Positions 3,385 through 12,035 of a stretch of 13,190 nt of DNA are shown here, one piece after another. Each line of letters begins with the position of its first letter. Position 1 is the stretch's first letter. Under the pieces are notes generated by a model. That model saw nothing but the letters and a program-made list of their open reading frames with translations, was not told the origin of the DNA and made no database searches. Source of the DNA: a virus (taxonomy: Duplodnaviria; Heunggongvirae; Uroviricota; Caudoviricetes); the IMG/VR virus record IMGVR_UViG_2700989170_000010; one strand, 5' to 3'. A program made the translations under genes and the position numbers.

Positions 3385-3605
3385 TCAGCATAGATTCTCG
3401 TTGTCCGTTGCTTGAAAAGCTGAAACTGGAACTGACAACACCTCATCGTGATTTCGACCGTAACGGACGTGTGATGGTCGAAAGTAAAAAAGACCTCGCA
3501 AAACGCGAGATACCGTCACCAAACGTTGCTGATGCATTCATTATGGCCTTCGCGCCAATCGATACATCGCTGGATATCTGGGAACAGCTGGGGAGACAGG
3601 CCTGA
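3312..3605 (+). CDS. terminase large subunit, extreme C-terminal segment (frame B), continuation of the previous segment after a frame change
   Basis: Translation ...ADRFRNTFNAINNGEQYPVDELISIDSRCPLLEKLKLELTTPHRDFDRNGRVMVESKKDLAKREIPSPNVADAFIMAFAPI... matches the conserved C-terminal tail of terminase large subunits (…G.v.vESK.D.kKR...SP..ADA..maf). Stop TGA 3603-3605 overlaps the portal ATG (TGATG). Confidence 0.65.
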   Translation: MVADRFRNTFNAINNGEQYPVDELISIDSRCPLLEKLKLELTTPHRDFDRNGRVMVESKKDLAKREIPSPNVADAFIMAFAPIDTSLDIWEQLGRQA

Positions 3606-5071
3606 TGGCACGAAACAAACAAGCCCTGCGGCGAACTGTGCAGGCCACAGCTGATGGTTATGAGAATTTTATTGCCCGAGTAGGGATGCAGACACCTAAC
3701 CAGCACTCAGCATCCACCTACCGGGCTAATTTCACCAGTCGTAACCGCATGCTGGTGGAATGGTCCTATCGTTCATCCTGGATCATCGGCGAAGCAGTCG
3801 ATGCTATCCCGGATGATATGACCCGCAAAGGCATTCGCATCACTTCGGAAATTGATGCAAAAGATCGTGGCATTCTCGAATCACAACTGGATGAGTTGCA
3901 AATCTGGGATGCGCTGAATGACGTGCTGAAATGGTCGCGCCTCTACGGCGGCGCGGTGGGTTTCATCATGATTGAGGGGCAGGCACCAATGACCCCGCTG
4001 CGACCCGAAACCATCGGTAAGGGCAAGTTTAAGGGGATTCTCCCGCTCGACCGCTGGATGGTCGACCCGGCACTGACCCGCCGCATTAAAGATATGGGGC
4101 CGGACCTGGGTAAACCTGAGTTTTACGATGTGGTGACCACAGCAACGGGAATTCCTGCCTGGCGCATTCATCACAGTCGCCTGATTCGCTTTGATGGCGT
4201 CACGTTGCCATTTCAGCAGAAGATGACCGAGAACGAATGGGGAATGTCGGTTGTAGAGCGTATCTGGGATCGTCTTACCGCGTTCGACAGCGCTACTGTC
4301 GGCGCGGCGCAGCTGGTCTACAAGGCGCATTTGCGTACCTACAGCGTGGAGAAGCTACGCGAGCTTATCGCACTTGGTGGTCCTGCGTATGAAGCGTTGC
4401 TGAAGAATATCGACCTGATTCGACAGTTCCAGAGTAATGAAGGCATGACGCTCATGGACTCGCGGGATAAGTTTGAAACCCATCAGTACAGCTTCAGTGG
4501 TCTGGATGACATCCTTTCGCAGTTTGCAGAACAGATTAGTGGCGCTGTTGGTATCCCACTGGTGCGGTTGTTCGGACAGTCCCCGAAAGGATTTTCTACC
4601 GGTGATGCAGACCTTGCCAACTATTACGATCGCATCAGTTCGTTGCAGGAGAGGCGTTTACGTCTTCCGGTGCGGCGGATACTGGACATCATGCATCGTT
4701 CGGAACTTGGCAAGCCGCTGCCGGACGATTTCACGTTTGAGTTTAACCCGCTCTGGCAAATGTCTGATGTCGATCGCTCAACGGTGGCGTTAAACACCAC
4801 CAACGCAATCAGTACGGCGATGGGTGATGGTCTGATGACACTGAAAGCCGCTATGACTGATTTGCGAGAAAATTCTGACGTAACCGGCATAGGGGCATCC
4901 ATTACCAACGAGGACATCGAGAATGCCGAAGATGAAGCGCCGCCCGGCATCGGCGAACCTGATGACGAACCGCAGGAGCCGTCAGGCGGAAATCCGGTAT
5001 CGAACCAGCCTACGCAGGATAGCGAGGGCGGTCGGAGACATCGTAAATGGTCGCTACGATGGTTCAAATGA
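3605..5071 (+). CDS. phage portal protein (putative; DUF1073/portal-like) with acidic Pro-rich C-terminal tail
   Basis: 488-aa ORF immediately after the terminase with a translationally coupled start (TGATG). Size and position fit a portal. C-terminus EDEAPPGIGEPDDEPQEPSGGNPVSNQPTQDSEGG is a disordered acidic tail. Confidence 0.7.
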   Translation: MARNKQALRRTVQATADGYENFIARVGMQTPNQHSASTYRANFTSRNRMLVEWSYRSSWIIGEAVDAIPDDMTRKGIRITSEIDAKDRGILESQLDELQIWDALNDVLKWSRLYGGAVGFIMIEGQAPMTPLRPETIGKGKFKGILPLDRWMVDPALTRRIKDMGPDLGKPEFYDVVTTATGIPAWRIHHSRLIRFDGVTLPFQQKMTENEWGMSVVERIWDRLTAFDSATVGAAQLVYKAHLRTYSVEKLRELIALGGPAYEALLKNIDLIRQFQSNEGMTLMDSRDKFETHQYSFSGLDDILSQFAEQISGAVGIPLVRLFGQSPKGFSTGDADLANYYDRISSLQERRLRLPVRRILDIMHRSELGKPLPDDFTFEFNPLWQMSDVDRSTVALNTTNAISTAMGDGLMTLKAAMTDLRENSDVTGIGASITNEDIENAEDEAPPGIGEPDDEPQEPSGGNPVSNQPTQDSEGGRRHRKWSLRWFK

Positions 5072-5705
5072 CAGTATCACGGAAATTATTGCGGCGCTGG
5101 AGCGTTACAGTGAAATCATCACCCCCTGGGCGACAAAGGTCGCGGAAAACTTTACTGCGGACCTAACCCGGCAGAACGAGAAAGTTTGGCGGCAACACAG
5201 CAAGAACATCAGTCGCGAGCTCCGCAATCTTGTGGAAAGCGCTCCTGTGGGCCAGGTGATGCAATCCATCATCGCCGAACAGGTCAAGTACATCAAATCT
5301 CTGCCTCTCGAGGCCGCAGACAGGGTGTACGACATCCAGAACAAAGCGATAGAGGCTGTTGTCACCGGTGGTCGGGCGGAGCAGTTTGCTAAAGAGATTG
5401 CATCTACCGGCGATGTTGCTAAGTCTAGGGCCGATCTGATTGCCCGAACGGAACTGGGAAGAGCAACGGGCGCGCTGGATATGGCCCGAGCGATAGCTAT
5501 TGGCTCGGATGGTTATATTTGGCGTACAGCCGATGATGGCGATGTCCGAGATTCCCACGATCACATGAAAGGTAAATTCGTCCGCTGGGATTCACCTCCA
5601 ACTTTGGACGGCATGACCGGCCACGCGGGCGAGCTGCCAAACTGCCGCTGCTATAAAGAGATCGTGTTTGTTCGCGTTCCATTCGCAATGAAAAGGGCAG
5701 CATAA
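4923..5705 (+). CDS. phage head morphogenesis / minor head protein, Mu gpF-like (SPP1 gp7-like)
   Basis: C-terminal region ARTELGRATGALDMARAIAIGSDGYIWRTADDGDVRDSHDHMKGKFVRWDSPPTLDGMTGHAGELPNCRCY carries the Phage_Mu_F hallmarks (ARTE..., D.RVR.SH, P.CRC). Start is uncertain (ATG 4923 or ATG 4962). This frame is closed upstream at TAG 4890-4892. Confidence 0.8.
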   Translation: MPKMKRRPASANLMTNRRSRQAEIRYRTSLRRIARAVGDIVNGRYDGSNDSITEIIAALERYSEIITPWATKVAENFTADLTRQNEKVWRQHSKNISRELRNLVESAPVGQVMQSIIAEQVKYIKSLPLEAADRVYDIQNKAIEAVVTGGRAEQFAKEIASTGDVAKSRADLIARTELGRATGALDMARAIAIGSDGYIWRTADDGDVRDSHDHMKGKFVRWDSPPTLDGMTGHAGELPNCRCYKEIVFVRVPFAMKRAA

Positions 5706-5708
5706 CCC

Positions 5709-6929
5709 ATGAAATACTTTTTTGAGACCAGGCTCGGGGAAACCCGATACCGCCTGGCTGACGGCTCGTTGCTGTGCAAAGACGTGCCGATAGGACGAAC
5801 AGGTAAGCAGCTCTATGGTGCTGATGACCTGCCAAAACTGAAACCCGATAAGTTCGTTGAAATAGTCGTCACGCGTTCTCCTGAGCAGGTATTCCATCCG
5901 GCCACGCTTGCCTCATTCGAAGGGATGAGCATCACGATCCTGCATCCTGAAGATGAAAACGGGAATGTGCGGCTGGTAAATCCCGAGAACTGGAAAGTGC
6001 TTGCTGTCGGGCACCTCCAGAATGTCCGGCGCGGGACGGGTGAGCAGTCTGATTTGATGCTGGCTGACCTTATCGTCAAAGACGAAAGCGCCATTCAGCT
6101 TATCGAAGATGGCCTGCGCGAAGTGTCGTGCGGCTATGACGCGGAGTACGAGCAGACCGAGCCAGGTAAAGCCGAGCAGGTCGATATTACCGGAAACCAT
6201 GTGGCTCTTGTCCCTAAAGGCAGAGCCGGAAATCGTTGTGCAATTGGAGACAGAGACACAATGGCAAATCAAAAGAAAAACTGGTGGAACCGCATGCGTG
6301 CGGCCATCAAGACAGGAGATGCCGACACCATGAACGAACTGGTGGAGTCGGCTCCCGCATCGGTTACAGGAGATGAGGGGGATTTGCCGCAGGGCGTTAA
6401 TCTCAACATCAACCTGTCCCCGCAGCAACCACTACCGGACAAAGCACCAGAGATGGGCGGAGATCCAACCGGCGACAGTGATGATGACCTCAAAACATTA
6501 CTGAAAGCCCTGCTGGCTAAGCTGGAAAGAAATGCCACGGGCGATAACGATAATAAGCCTGACGATAATCCGACCGGTGACGGCGAGGACGATGAAGAGG
6601 AAACCACGATTACTGGTGACTCAGCCTGGCGTGCCGAAGTTATCGTTCCGGGTATCGATCTGAGCCGTAAGATGAAACCGACCGCGTTCAAACGCGAGGT
6701 TCTGGCTTCTGCTGACAAAACGCTGGTTCGCCAGATAGTCGGTGATGCGGATATCCGCAAATTACCGAAACAATCGGTCGACATGGCGTTTAATGCCGTG
6801 TCTGAGGTTGCCAAAGGGCGAAACACCCGCGCCACCACCGGCGATGCACAGCGCCTAAACATGGGCATGACCAGTATCGCTTCCCTGAACAAACAAAACG
6901 CTGAATTCTGGGCAAACCGTAAAGGGTAA
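5709..6929 (+). CDS. putative prohead scaffolding-type protein (possibly DUF2213-like N-terminal domain) with acidic TGD-repeat low-complexity core
   Basis: 406-aa ORF between the MuF and capsid genes. Residues about 200-305 are strongly acidic and contain repeated TGD motifs (TGDAD, TGDEGD, PTGDSDDD, ATGDNDN, PTGDGEDDEEE, ITGD) plus an LKTLLKALLAKLE helix-like segment. Function is inferred from position and composition; the family name is a tentative recall. Confidence 0.5.
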   Translation: MKYFFETRLGETRYRLADGSLLCKDVPIGRTGKQLYGADDLPKLKPDKFVEIVVTRSPEQVFHPATLASFEGMSITILHPEDENGNVRLVNPENWKVLAVGHLQNVRRGTGEQSDLMLADLIVKDESAIQLIEDGLREVSCGYDAEYEQTEPGKAEQVDITGNHVALVPKGRAGNRCAIGDRDTMANQKKNWWNRMRAAIKTGDADTMNELVESAPASVTGDEGDLPQGVNLNINLSPQQPLPDKAPEMGGDPTGDSDDDLKTLLKALLAKLERNATGDNDNKPDDNPTGDGEDDEEETTITGDSAWRAEVIVPGIDLSRKMKPTAFKREVLASADKTLVRQIVGDADIRKLPKQSVDMAFNAVSEVAKGRNTRATTGDAQRLNMGMTSIASLNKQNAEFWANRKG

Positions 6930-6932
6930 AAA

Positions 6933-7289
6933 ATGAATAATGTATTTCTGTACCGGATGCCTGTTGGCATTGCCGGGGCTGTCTCTCGCCCGCAGGACTT
7001 AACCGTCGAACCGGTGGTCCTTAAATCCGATAACGCCTTCGCTGCCTATGGCCTGGCTGGTAAATACGATGATGACGGTTTTTTCGTGCCGCTGGCAGAT
7101 GGTGATACCGCAGACAAGGTGAAGGGGATCTACGTGCGCCCTTATCCGACCACGTCGCAGCCGGACATGGTTCGCCAGGTGGGAACAGGCAAGAACTTCC
7201 CGGGCGACGCCATGAAGCGTGGCTACGTGACCGTTAATCTCGGTTCTGATTTTGATGCCAGCACTATCAAAAAAGGCGATCTCCACTGA
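6933..7289 (+). CDS. small head-associated protein (possible decoration/accessory protein), apparently truncated by a frameshift at an A6 run
   Basis: 118-aa ORF MNNVFLYRMPVGIAGAVSRPQDLTVEPVVLK... ends at TGA 7287-7289, 13 nt after AAAAAA (7269-7274). The +1 frame continues open to 7422. Confidence 0.55.
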   Translation: MNNVFLYRMPVGIAGAVSRPQDLTVEPVVLKSDNAFAAYGLAGKYDDDGFFVPLADGDTADKVKGIYVRPYPTTSQPDMVRQVGTGKNFPGDAMKRGYVTVNLGSDFDASTIKKGDLH

Positions 7290-7422
7290 TGAATCCATCA
7301 AAGTGCCTCTGGGTGGATTCATGTCCACGTCAGTCAGTGGCAAAAACGTGGTGCTGACCAACGCTGAATTCACAGGTGCCGGTGATGCTGACGGCAATGC
7401 AGAAATTTCCTGGAAGATTTAA
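7270..7422 (+). CDS. probable frame-shifted C-terminal continuation of the 6933 gene
   Basis: The frame entered by skipping one base in the A6 run reads ...AISTDESIKVPLGGFMSTSVSGKNVVLTNAEFTGAGDADGNAEISWKI* with stop TAA 7420-7422, immediately before the RBS and ATG of the capsid gene. It fills an otherwise anomalous 144-nt gap in a tightly packed operon. Confidence 0.45.
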   Translation, partial: KKAISTDESIKVPLGGFMSTSVSGKNVVLTNAEFTGAGDADGNAEISWKI

Positions 7423-7433
7423 GGAACAGACGA

Positions 7434-8375
7434 ATGATTACTTTTGATCAGGCAACCGTTGACAGCTCTGGTGCCTTTCTCATCGGGGAGCTGGAGAGAC
7501 TCGACCAGACGCTGAACCTGCCACTGGTGGGGTACACCTGGAGCCGCGATATTCAACTGCGTGAAGACGCCTCCATCGCAGATGACATTTCCAGCTGGAC
7601 GAATACCAGCTTCGCCGCTGCGGGTACTGGCGCAAATCCGAATGGAAAAAACTGGGTAGGCAAAGACTCAACCGCTATTGCTGGCGTGAACGTGGATATC
7701 GGCAAATCCGGTAACCCGCTGAACCTGTGGGGGATGGAACTTGGCTGGACGGTCATAGAATTGCAGGCTGCTCAGCAGGTCGGCCGCCCGATTGATACGC
7801 AGAAGTATGACGGTATGCAACTGAAATGGCAGATGGATAACGATGAACAGGTATATGTTGGCGATTCCGCATTAAACCTGAAAGGCCTTGTTACCCTGGA
7901 CGGCGTGCCTGTCAACAACGCTGCCAAAACGTGGGCAACCTCAACACCGGACGAAATCCGCGCAAGCATTAACCAGGTGCTGTCTGATGCGTGGGCCGCT
8001 TCTGGTTACTCTGTGGTTCCGCGTGATTTGCTGATCCCGCCTGAGCAGTTTGCTCTGTTGTCCAGCATCATCGTTTCATCTGCAGGTAACCAGTCCCTGT
8101 TGACGAACCTTCAGACCAACACCATCAGCTATCACCAGAACGGTGTTCCGCTGAATATCCGCGCGGTTAAATGGCTGAAAGGCCGTGGTGTGGGGAATAA
8201 GGATCGCATAGTTGCGTACACCAACGATAAAAAATACGTCCGCTACCCGCTGGTTCCGCTTCAGAGCGTGCCGGTGCAGTATCGCGGTCTGTATCAGATC
8301 GTCACTTACTACGGCAAGCTGGGTGCAGTCGAGCCAGTGTACAAAGAAACCATTTCGTACGTTGATGGCATTTAA
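7434..8375 (+). CDS. putative major capsid protein (possibly DUF2184-like)
   Basis: 313-aa ORF with RBS AAGGA 8 nt upstream, positioned after the scaffold-like and decoration-like genes and followed by a GC-rich hairpin. Translation MITFDQATVDSSGAFLIGELERLDQTLNLPLVGYTWSRDIQL... Family assignment is from memory and unverified. Confidence 0.5.
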   Translation: MITFDQATVDSSGAFLIGELERLDQTLNLPLVGYTWSRDIQLREDASIADDISSWTNTSFAAAGTGANPNGKNWVGKDSTAIAGVNVDIGKSGNPLNLWGMELGWTVIELQAAQQVGRPIDTQKYDGMQLKWQMDNDEQVYVGDSALNLKGLVTLDGVPVNNAAKTWATSTPDEIRASINQVLSDAWAASGYSVVPRDLLIPPEQFALLSSIIVSSAGNQSLLTNLQTNTISYHQNGVPLNIRAVKWLKGRGVGNKDRIVAYTNDKKYVRYPLVPLQSVPVQYRGLYQIVTYYGKLGAVEPVYKETISYVDGI

Positions 8376-8382
8376 CAGCCAC

Positions 8383-8403
8383 ATGGCCCCCTGGCGGGGC
8401 CAT
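8383..8403 (+). terminator. GC-rich perfect hairpin (8-bp stem, 5-nt loop) 8 nt downstream of the capsid gene stop
   Basis: ATGGCCCC (8383-8390), loop CTGGC, GGGGCCAT (8396-8403). No T-tract follows, so it is a putative attenuating or stabilising stem-loop and not a canonical intrinsic terminator. Confidence 0.45.
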
Positions 8404-8416
8404 TAAGGATGACCCG

Positions 8417-8662
8417 ATGGCAAAAAATGATGCAGTAATACACGTACATACCCCGTTTGTGCTCACGCTTCCCGACGGTTCTCGGCGCGAGTTTGTTAAA
8501 GGCCGTCATGTTGTGGAGGAAGACGTTGCCACGCACTGGTTCACTCGTGCGCACGCGGAAGTATCCGTTGGCAAAGCCACAGACGCGCGTAACGAGGTAA
8601 AAAATGCCAAAGAATTGAGGTGTACTGGCAATAGCGGACACTACCATTTGTTCTTTTTTTAA
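8417..8662 (+). CDS. small hypothetical phage protein downstream of the capsid gene; C-terminus near the contig end is unreliable
   Basis: 81-aa ORF with good RBS (AAGGA, 7-nt spacer): MAKNDAVIHVHTPFVLTLPDGSRREFVKGRHVVEEDVATHWFTRAHAEV... It ends ...HYHLFFF* in a T-run 11 nt before the N-run. Confidence 0.45.
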   Translation: MAKNDAVIHVHTPFVLTLPDGSRREFVKGRHVVEEDVATHWFTRAHAEVSVGKATDARNEVKNAKELRCTGNSGHYHLFFF

Positions 8663-8673
8663 GCAGCCATCTG

Positions 8674-8683
8674 NNNNNNNNNN
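8674..8683. other. assembly gap (10 N); boundary between phage contig and yfaL-nrdAB chromosomal contig
   Basis: Run of 10 N. Gene content changes across it. Confidence 0.9.
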
Positions 8684-11826: not shown

Positions 11827-11835
11827 TATTGAGAT

Positions 11836-12035
<200 letters not shown>

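Follow-up and report, generated by a model that had tools for sequence, protein, structure and literature searches.

A conserved hairpin after the major capsid gene of a decayed prophage and its phage relatives, a candidate 3'-end protective element of capsid mRNA

Belasco and colleagues reportedly described in 1985 how a hairpin placed after the high-copy structural genes of the Rhodobacter pufBA-LMX operon confers stability on one segment of the mRNA and an unequal stoichiometry on the encoded proteins. Hairpins without a U-tract are poor at terminating transcription by E. coli RNA polymerase. In E. coli, the stoichiometry of operons is set by protective 3' hairpins, both in the malE-malF case and genome-wide (PMC5927463), and stalling of PNPase scales with the stability of the stem, an effect that was borne out with a gfp-hairpin-mCherry reporter (PMC10667835). 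Among phages, LUZ100 has a strong terminator directly after its capsid gene, as has T7 (PMC10134795).

Here we compare with these systems a hairpin at 8383–8403 on the + strand of a 13,190-nucleotide stretch of DNA, the whole of which is referred to as the window. Like the malE-malF REP stabiliser and selective RNA processing and stabilisation (SRPS), for which the mechanism is documented in E. coli, it is a stable stem-loop lacking a U-tract, conserved as a structure of the sense strand and lying between a much-needed upstream and a less-needed downstream gene of one operon (PMC5927463; PMC10667835). It differs from the malE-malF REP in being non-REP and non-dispersed, in measuring 8 bp, which is much shorter than a REP pair, and in belonging to a phage late operon. 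With T-phi of T7, located after gene 10, and with LUZ100 it has in common the site right after the capsid gene and the essential, read-through-dependent genes downstream, and the orthologous sites of its relatives hold canonical terminators (PMC10134795). In contrast to both, the window hairpin has no U-tract, and the polymerase that transcribes its operon is presumably that of the host, not one of phage origin. The T-phi stem is also longer. Compared with Rho-independent terminators of E. coli, the GC-rich stem, the short loop and the position just past a stop codon are all present, whereas a ribosome-binding site (RBS) stands where the U-tract would be, with 2 U in 8 nt. The pufBA-LMX case follows the same stoichiometry logic in an unrelated organism and operon, with several hairpins of larger size. 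At the level of titles and abstracts we found no description of the hairpin for this phage group, in which it thus appears to be previously undescribed, while its kind is well known; nor did any title or abstract concerning transcription of the SEN34/Brunovirus/STY1053 phage group surface, and the SPP1 genome paper contains nothing specific about a post-capsid hairpin.

The phage DNA of the window (3516–8615, + strand) is covered by a single blastn alignment with vB_EcoM-606R2 (L001) at 94.6% identity and, according to Pfam, comprises genes for a portal, a Mu-F-like protein, a DUF2213 protein, a decoration protein and the capsid, followed by the start of the next gene. In the region 5000–6000 the identity to vB_EcoM-606R2 is just 82–86%, which suggests mosaicism. 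The gene upstream of the hairpin (7434–8375, + strand; 313 aa; TAA stop at 8373–8375), taken for a capsid gene in the original prediction, indeed encodes the major capsid protein, as judged from matches to PF09950 (E = 2.6e-85) and to the phrog_264 major head protein, and its product is 98% identical to the capsid of vB_EcoM-606R2. The downstream gene has its Shine-Dalgarno sequence, AAGGA, at 8405–8409 (+ strand), 1 nt past the stem and 7 nt ahead of the ATG at 8417, a start that is also the one annotated for the CDS of vB_EcoM-606R2; the same succession of stem and AAGGA is seen in SEN34, yong1 and Omnitron. It is a small gene of the STY1053 family, the phage-derived part of which runs from 8417 to 8615 (+ strand), where phage homology ends, and an intact homologue matches NF047914 and phrog_6497, with no assigned function. 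The spacer of 41–42 nt between the capsid and STY1053 genes is the largest clear gap of the 13 gene junctions in vB_EcoM-606R2, the neighbouring junctions being at most 14 nt long or overlapping. The window hairpin is accordingly a stem-loop in a spacer between co-oriented operon genes, as expected of a stabiliser. In the RefSeq record of SEN34 (NC_028699), the annotated CDS SEN34_8 (L002 4985–5386) begins 8 nt past the capsid stop and spans the hairpin, while its family matches start only at residues 12–19 and an AAGGA-preceded ATG lies just 3' of the hairpin; its N-terminus is probably over-extended.

What remains of the prophage is a fragment of 5.1 kb with head genes only, from which the terminase, neck, tail and lysogeny modules are missing. 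The decoration (cement) gene is frameshifted by a 17-bp deletion at ~7280, leaving 118 aa compared with 168 aa in vB_EcoM-606R2, and from 8616 onwards the end of an IS600 element (IS3 family) abuts the phage DNA and truncates the STY1053-family gene. Mapping of transcripts on an induced lysogen, as originally proposed, presupposed an inducible prophage, and what the window holds is this decayed fragment. Because the fragment is both frameshifted and cut by IS600, the copy of the hairpin in the window is likely vestigial, probably a relic that is no longer used. The surrounding DNA is an Escherichia/Shigella-type chromosome with a GntR/FCD regulator and an oxidoreductase; a run of N (masked) at 8675–8683 follows the IS600 end, and to the right come the 3' end of yfaL, ypaB and then nrdA. 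A hint of a Shigella-like genome comes from how abundant IS600 is. The phage/IS600/yfaL junction was absent from all complete E. coli genomes.

The hairpin consists of a 5' arm, ATGGCCCC (8383–8390), a loop, CTGGC (8391–8395), and a 3' arm, GGGGCCAT (8396–8403), all on the + strand, and reads as RNA ATGGCCCC-CUGGC-GGGGCCAU. The predicted stem, perfect over 8 bp and with six G:C pairs, is thus present in the sequence, where it closes a loop of 5 nt, and folding with ViennaRNA recovers the hairpin in both the minimum-free-energy and the centroid structures, with a dG of −14.7 kcal/mol for the isolated hairpin. The offset of 8 nt from the capsid stop holds in the sense that the stem begins at the 8th nucleotide, with 7 nt (CAGCCAC) in between, and the position immediately before the RBS of the next gene agrees with the placement of AAGGA. 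The U-tract is absent, as claimed: the 3' flank, UUAAGGAUGA (given as UUAAGGAU when scored for termination), has 2 U per 8 nt, so that the hairpin combines the GC-rich stem and short loop of an intrinsic terminator with a flank that is not U-rich, and a consensus terminator scan made no call at this site. No RNase E-type site (RN|WUU) was evident within the short post-capsid spacer. In stem, position and flank, the first observation of the hairpin was correct.

To place the hairpin among related phages, 256 capsid-relative loci from annotated phages and IMG/VR were collapsed to 82 distinct post-capsid sequences. A GC-rich post-capsid hairpin, with dG from −8.7 to −20.7 kcal/mol, occurs in 75 of the 82; in the 37 of these 75 sequences that were measured it starts 3–10 nt past the stop and ends 1–8 nt before the RBS. 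The sequences of the hairpins vary widely, as illustrated by SEN34 (UGGCCCC-GAAA-GGGGCCA), Hafnia phage yong1 (GGCCCCC-AUAU-GGGGGCC), Klebsiella phage Mulock (GCGGCCC-GAAA-GGGCCGC), the EKP1-like clade (GGCGGG-GAAA-CCCGCC, GCGGGG-GAAA-CCCCGC and GGUGGGG-GAAA-CCCCACC) and a Ralstonia phage whose 11-bp stem includes two G.U pairs. In total, 14 distinct 6-bp stem types were found. At the three pairs nearest the loop, ~31 cores have G-C and ~22 have C-G, an orientation that flips between clades. Loops include GAAA, GCAA, UUAG, CUGGC, AUAU and ACAC; GNRA tetraloops cap 30 of the 54 distinct cores, while the window loop, CUGGC or UGGC, is not of this type.

A plain MAFFT alignment of the cores (A1) was unusable, as it set the 3'-arm G-run of one clade against the 5'-arm G-run of another. 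This failure shows, at the level of the aligned sequences, that the shared feature is a structure and not a sequence, the arms being effectively swapped between clades. We therefore rely on an alignment (A2) anchored on the predicted hairpin loops by means of artificial constant flanks, in which 88.5% of cells were paired vs 59.3% in shuffles, a percentage that is circular under this anchoring and biased upward. Double-sided changes numbered 101 vs 40 ± 4 in shuffles, and the covariation score was 0.643 vs 0.174, a value that none of 500 shuffles reached; sliding the 3' partners brought the score to 0.346 at most. Conservation is supported independently of the anchoring by the constant position of the hairpin and by shuffling of the spacers, which fold better than their shuffles in 19 of 21 representative lineages. 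Moreover, some six wobbles (G.U or U.G) are present in the core stems, as opposed to no more than one A.C mismatch, an asymmetry which argues that the conserved molecule is RNA of the + (coding) strand rather than of the minus strand or a DNA cruciform. The structure is thus a sense-strand one kept, in the loop-anchored alignment, through compensatory changes, and the loss of base-pairing in homologues that would have spoken against the original prediction was not what divergent phages displayed.

Six relatives (YP3, Magia, A785.1, IFTN9, BgManors32 and E192a) have neither the gap nor the hairpin, which indicates that the hairpin is dispensable, and a distant Rhizobium phage also lacks a post-capsid hairpin. 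The exact 121-nt capsid-hairpin junction, on the other hand, was found in 242 of 5,426 complete E. coli genomes, at 1–2 copies each, in every case on the chromosome and in prophages. Among near-identical E. coli prophages (L010, L046, L048, L053), the 5'-arm C-run varies from 4 to 9 C and the 3'-arm G-run from 4 to 5 G; such homopolymer slippage alters both loop size and stem length. In E. coli prophages the loop includes a CCTGG Dcm site. E. coli prophages with 98% identical capsids also show two alternative 3' ends (L033 and L036 vs L003 and L007), one made up of TAA, the hairpin with the CUGGC loop and an STY1053 protein of 73 aa, the other of TGA-TAA, a GAAA-loop hairpin and a longer SEN34-like protein; judging from these sequences, a junction formed by recombination lies close to the 3' end of the capsid gene.

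Taken alone, the window hairpin is non-random by a slim margin. A count over the whole window of perfect stems (≥8 bp, ≥6 G:C pairs, loop of 3–8 nt) gave 2 vs a Markov expectation of 0.46, and 30% of simulations contained at least one. The 71-nt fold around the hairpin has a z of −1.27, and for the 42-nt post-capsid spacer, compared with its shuffles, z is −2.25 (p = 0.024). When the prophage fragment was scanned in sliding segments of 30 nt, the hairpin came fifth, four coding-region hairpins being as strong or stronger; of the top eight, no other lies in an intergenic spacer. Its significance hence derives from position and conservation, not from lone statistics. The only other perfect GC-rich 8-bp hairpin of the window, ATGCCCGG-CAAATA-CCGGGCAT at 2732–2753, begins 5 nt past the stop of the GntR/FCD regulator gene and is without a T-tract on the + strand; on the minus strand, TTAATTTAA comes after it. 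A strong GAAA-loop hairpin (dG −18.4 kcal/mol) at 5728–5757 lies within the first 50 nt of the DUF2213 gene, and SEN34 has a comparable hairpin of other sequence at the matching place (L002 2309–2338); this may be a conserved coding-region structure or mere codon constraint.

The post-capsid hairpins grade into terminators. In the 8 nt past the GC core, at least 5 T are present in 15 of the 75 variants, 3–4 in 20 and at most 2 in 40, and the U-rich orthologues have U-tracts of 6–7, as in GGCGGGGAAACCCGCC-TTTTTTT and in the U7 form of the L106 type, GGCGGGGAAACCCGCCTTTTTTT. Every relative in the clade of the window (clade A) has at most 2 U in these 8 nt. Canonical terminators follow the homologous capsid gene in Vibrio phages 1.278.O and 24, Klebsiella phage FZ14 and Edwardsiella phage ZHS, and in Stenotrophomonas CUB19 a long post-capsid hairpin is followed by UUU.

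Based on these findings, we consider it on balance likely that in intact phages the hairpin is a protective element of the sense strand, located at the 3' end of the capsid message and raising capsid mRNA over that of the downstream neck and tail genes. What we observed directly is the hairpin itself, where it lies, how it covaries, to which strand it belongs and how it grades into terminators. As a structure of the late mRNA in the only sizeable non-coding gap of the head operon, it would act after the downstream, less-needed part of the message had been cleaved by an endonuclease, or after occasional termination at the hairpin itself. The 3'-to-5' exonucleases PNPase and RNase II would then trim the message as far as the base of the GC-rich stem and stall there, leaving a stable, translatable capsid message and more capsid mRNA than downstream neck and tail mRNA. 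To these observations we add, by inference, that exonucleases are blocked, that the message is cleaved and that stoichiometry is affected. In sister lineages that gained or kept a U-tract, the site should both terminate and stabilise. The stabiliser reading is tempered by the spacer's lack of an evident RNase E-type site, by the moderate stability of the window stem (−14.7 kcal/mol) and by the nearness of the stop codon, at which ribosomes that terminate would frequently open the 5' arm. The original prediction was of a partial terminator or 3' stabiliser favouring capsid mRNA. Conserved pairing and the terminators at orthologous sites fit this proposal, while the missing U-tract opposes efficient termination; since the window lineage lacks the tract, only weak intrinsic termination is expected there, and stabilisation is the likelier half of the proposal.

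Considering that the orthologous sites include genuine terminators, the hairpin might instead be a leaky intrinsic terminator at which some RNA polymerases stop, so that attenuation would come about through transcription and not through mRNA decay, an explanation which we regard as possible but unlikely. It draws on the U-tracts of 6–7 in the 15 of 75 orthologues and in distant relatives, on the resemblance of GC-rich stems with GNRA loops to typical terminator hairpins, and on the documented post-capsid terminators (PMC10134795). The window lineage and the rest of clade A, however, have at most 2 U per 8 nt, the terminator scan is silent, and the stop codon, only 7 nt upstream, places terminating ribosomes where they would hinder folding. 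That hairpins lacking U are poor terminators of E. coli RNA polymerase is established knowledge and tells against the explanation as well. Leaky termination is therefore plausible in the U-tract lineages and weak in that of the window.

The gradation in U content also allows a broader proposal, a long shot in our estimation, in which the post-capsid site is an evolutionary rheostat that tunes the ratio of capsid to neck and tail expression lineage by lineage, the form with a U-tract acting as terminator and stabiliser and the form without one as stabiliser only. In the latter form, the downstream RBS may occupy the place of the U-tract, and the short distance from stop to stem may tie formation of the hairpin to ribosome traffic on the capsid gene; a variant in which the GNRA-capped stem is bound by a phage factor is less likely.

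A role in translation, by which the hairpin would insulate or partly mask the RBS of the STY1053-family gene and thereby couple or damp its translation relative to that of the capsid, appears quite improbable. The proximity of the two elements invites it, the end of the stem being 1–8 nt from the Shine-Dalgarno sequence in the 37 sequences measured, and in the minimum-free-energy fold of the window CC at 8379–8380 pairs with GG at 8407–8408 of the Shine-Dalgarno sequence, with similar outer pairs in several relatives. Yet the Shine-Dalgarno sequence always lies outside the main stem, the outer helix contributes less than 1 kcal/mol, and the mean pairing probability of the Shine-Dalgarno sequence was 0.35 vs 0.38 with the 5' flank shuffled (p = 0.42; n = 37, a set of sequences other than those of the window type), a result that does not support a Shine-Dalgarno-masking coupling hairpin. 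The U-tract variants, furthermore, are left unexplained by such a role.

It is very improbable that the hairpin has no function, whether as a palindrome arisen by chance or as what descent has neutrally preserved of an ancestral terminator. This explanation would accord with the chance expectation of 0.46 such stems per 13 kb, with the several relatives that do without the element, and with the presence of the window copy in a dead prophage fragment; it is countered by the 14 stem sequences that stay paired at one site despite diverging flanks and loops, by single changes that are wobble-compatible on the sense strand, and by spacer shuffles that are significant across lineages. We give hardly any credence to a site recognised by an RNA-binding protein of phage or host, or to a protein-bound DNA palindrome, as loop sequences vary freely, stem sequences are swapped between arms, wobble asymmetry favours RNA over DNA and no Rfam match was obtained even at E ≤ 10, which outweighs the conservation of GNRA loops and a short GC stem.

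Several known classes of element were considered and rejected. Rfam yielded no family for the hairpin, either over the whole window at the gathering threshold or over 8250–8550 at E ≤ 10. A REP/BIME identity is contradicted by this lack of a hit at 8250–8550 and by the occurrence of the junction at 1–2 copies per genome, not dispersed. A true REP/BIME palindrome cluster does exist in the window, at 11835–12035, in the gap from the nrdA stop (11826) to the nrdB start (~12060), where Rfam calls naRNA4 (RF02564) at 11883–11953 on the minus strand with 76 bits; besides the phage hairpin, the window therefore contains a bona fide REP array of the intercistronic kind. An RNase III site of the T7 R-site type, which takes ~20 bp or more of double-stranded RNA, was dismissed in view of the 8 contiguous pairs, the extensions of the stem beyond 8 bp being 2-bp helices across internal loops. 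A function on the minus strand was likewise discarded: that strand has no U-tract, and the wobble pairs are compatible with the + strand only.

Returning to the 3'-end protective element that we favour, it has no physiological weight in the window itself, since the prophage there is a fragment. For annotation it is of practical use, the downstream ORF of the SEN34 RefSeq record being one that extends across the hairpin. Nature provides, at one orthologous site, a series of variants, some with a U-tract and some lacking it, by which termination could be told apart from mRNA stabilisation in experiments. The post-capsid hairpin is most likely ordinary biology, a familiar device that would give a surplus of capsid message. 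If this reading is true, phages with PF09950-type capsids would offer a clean comparative example of a short hairpin that sets the excess of capsid message over that for low-copy virion parts.
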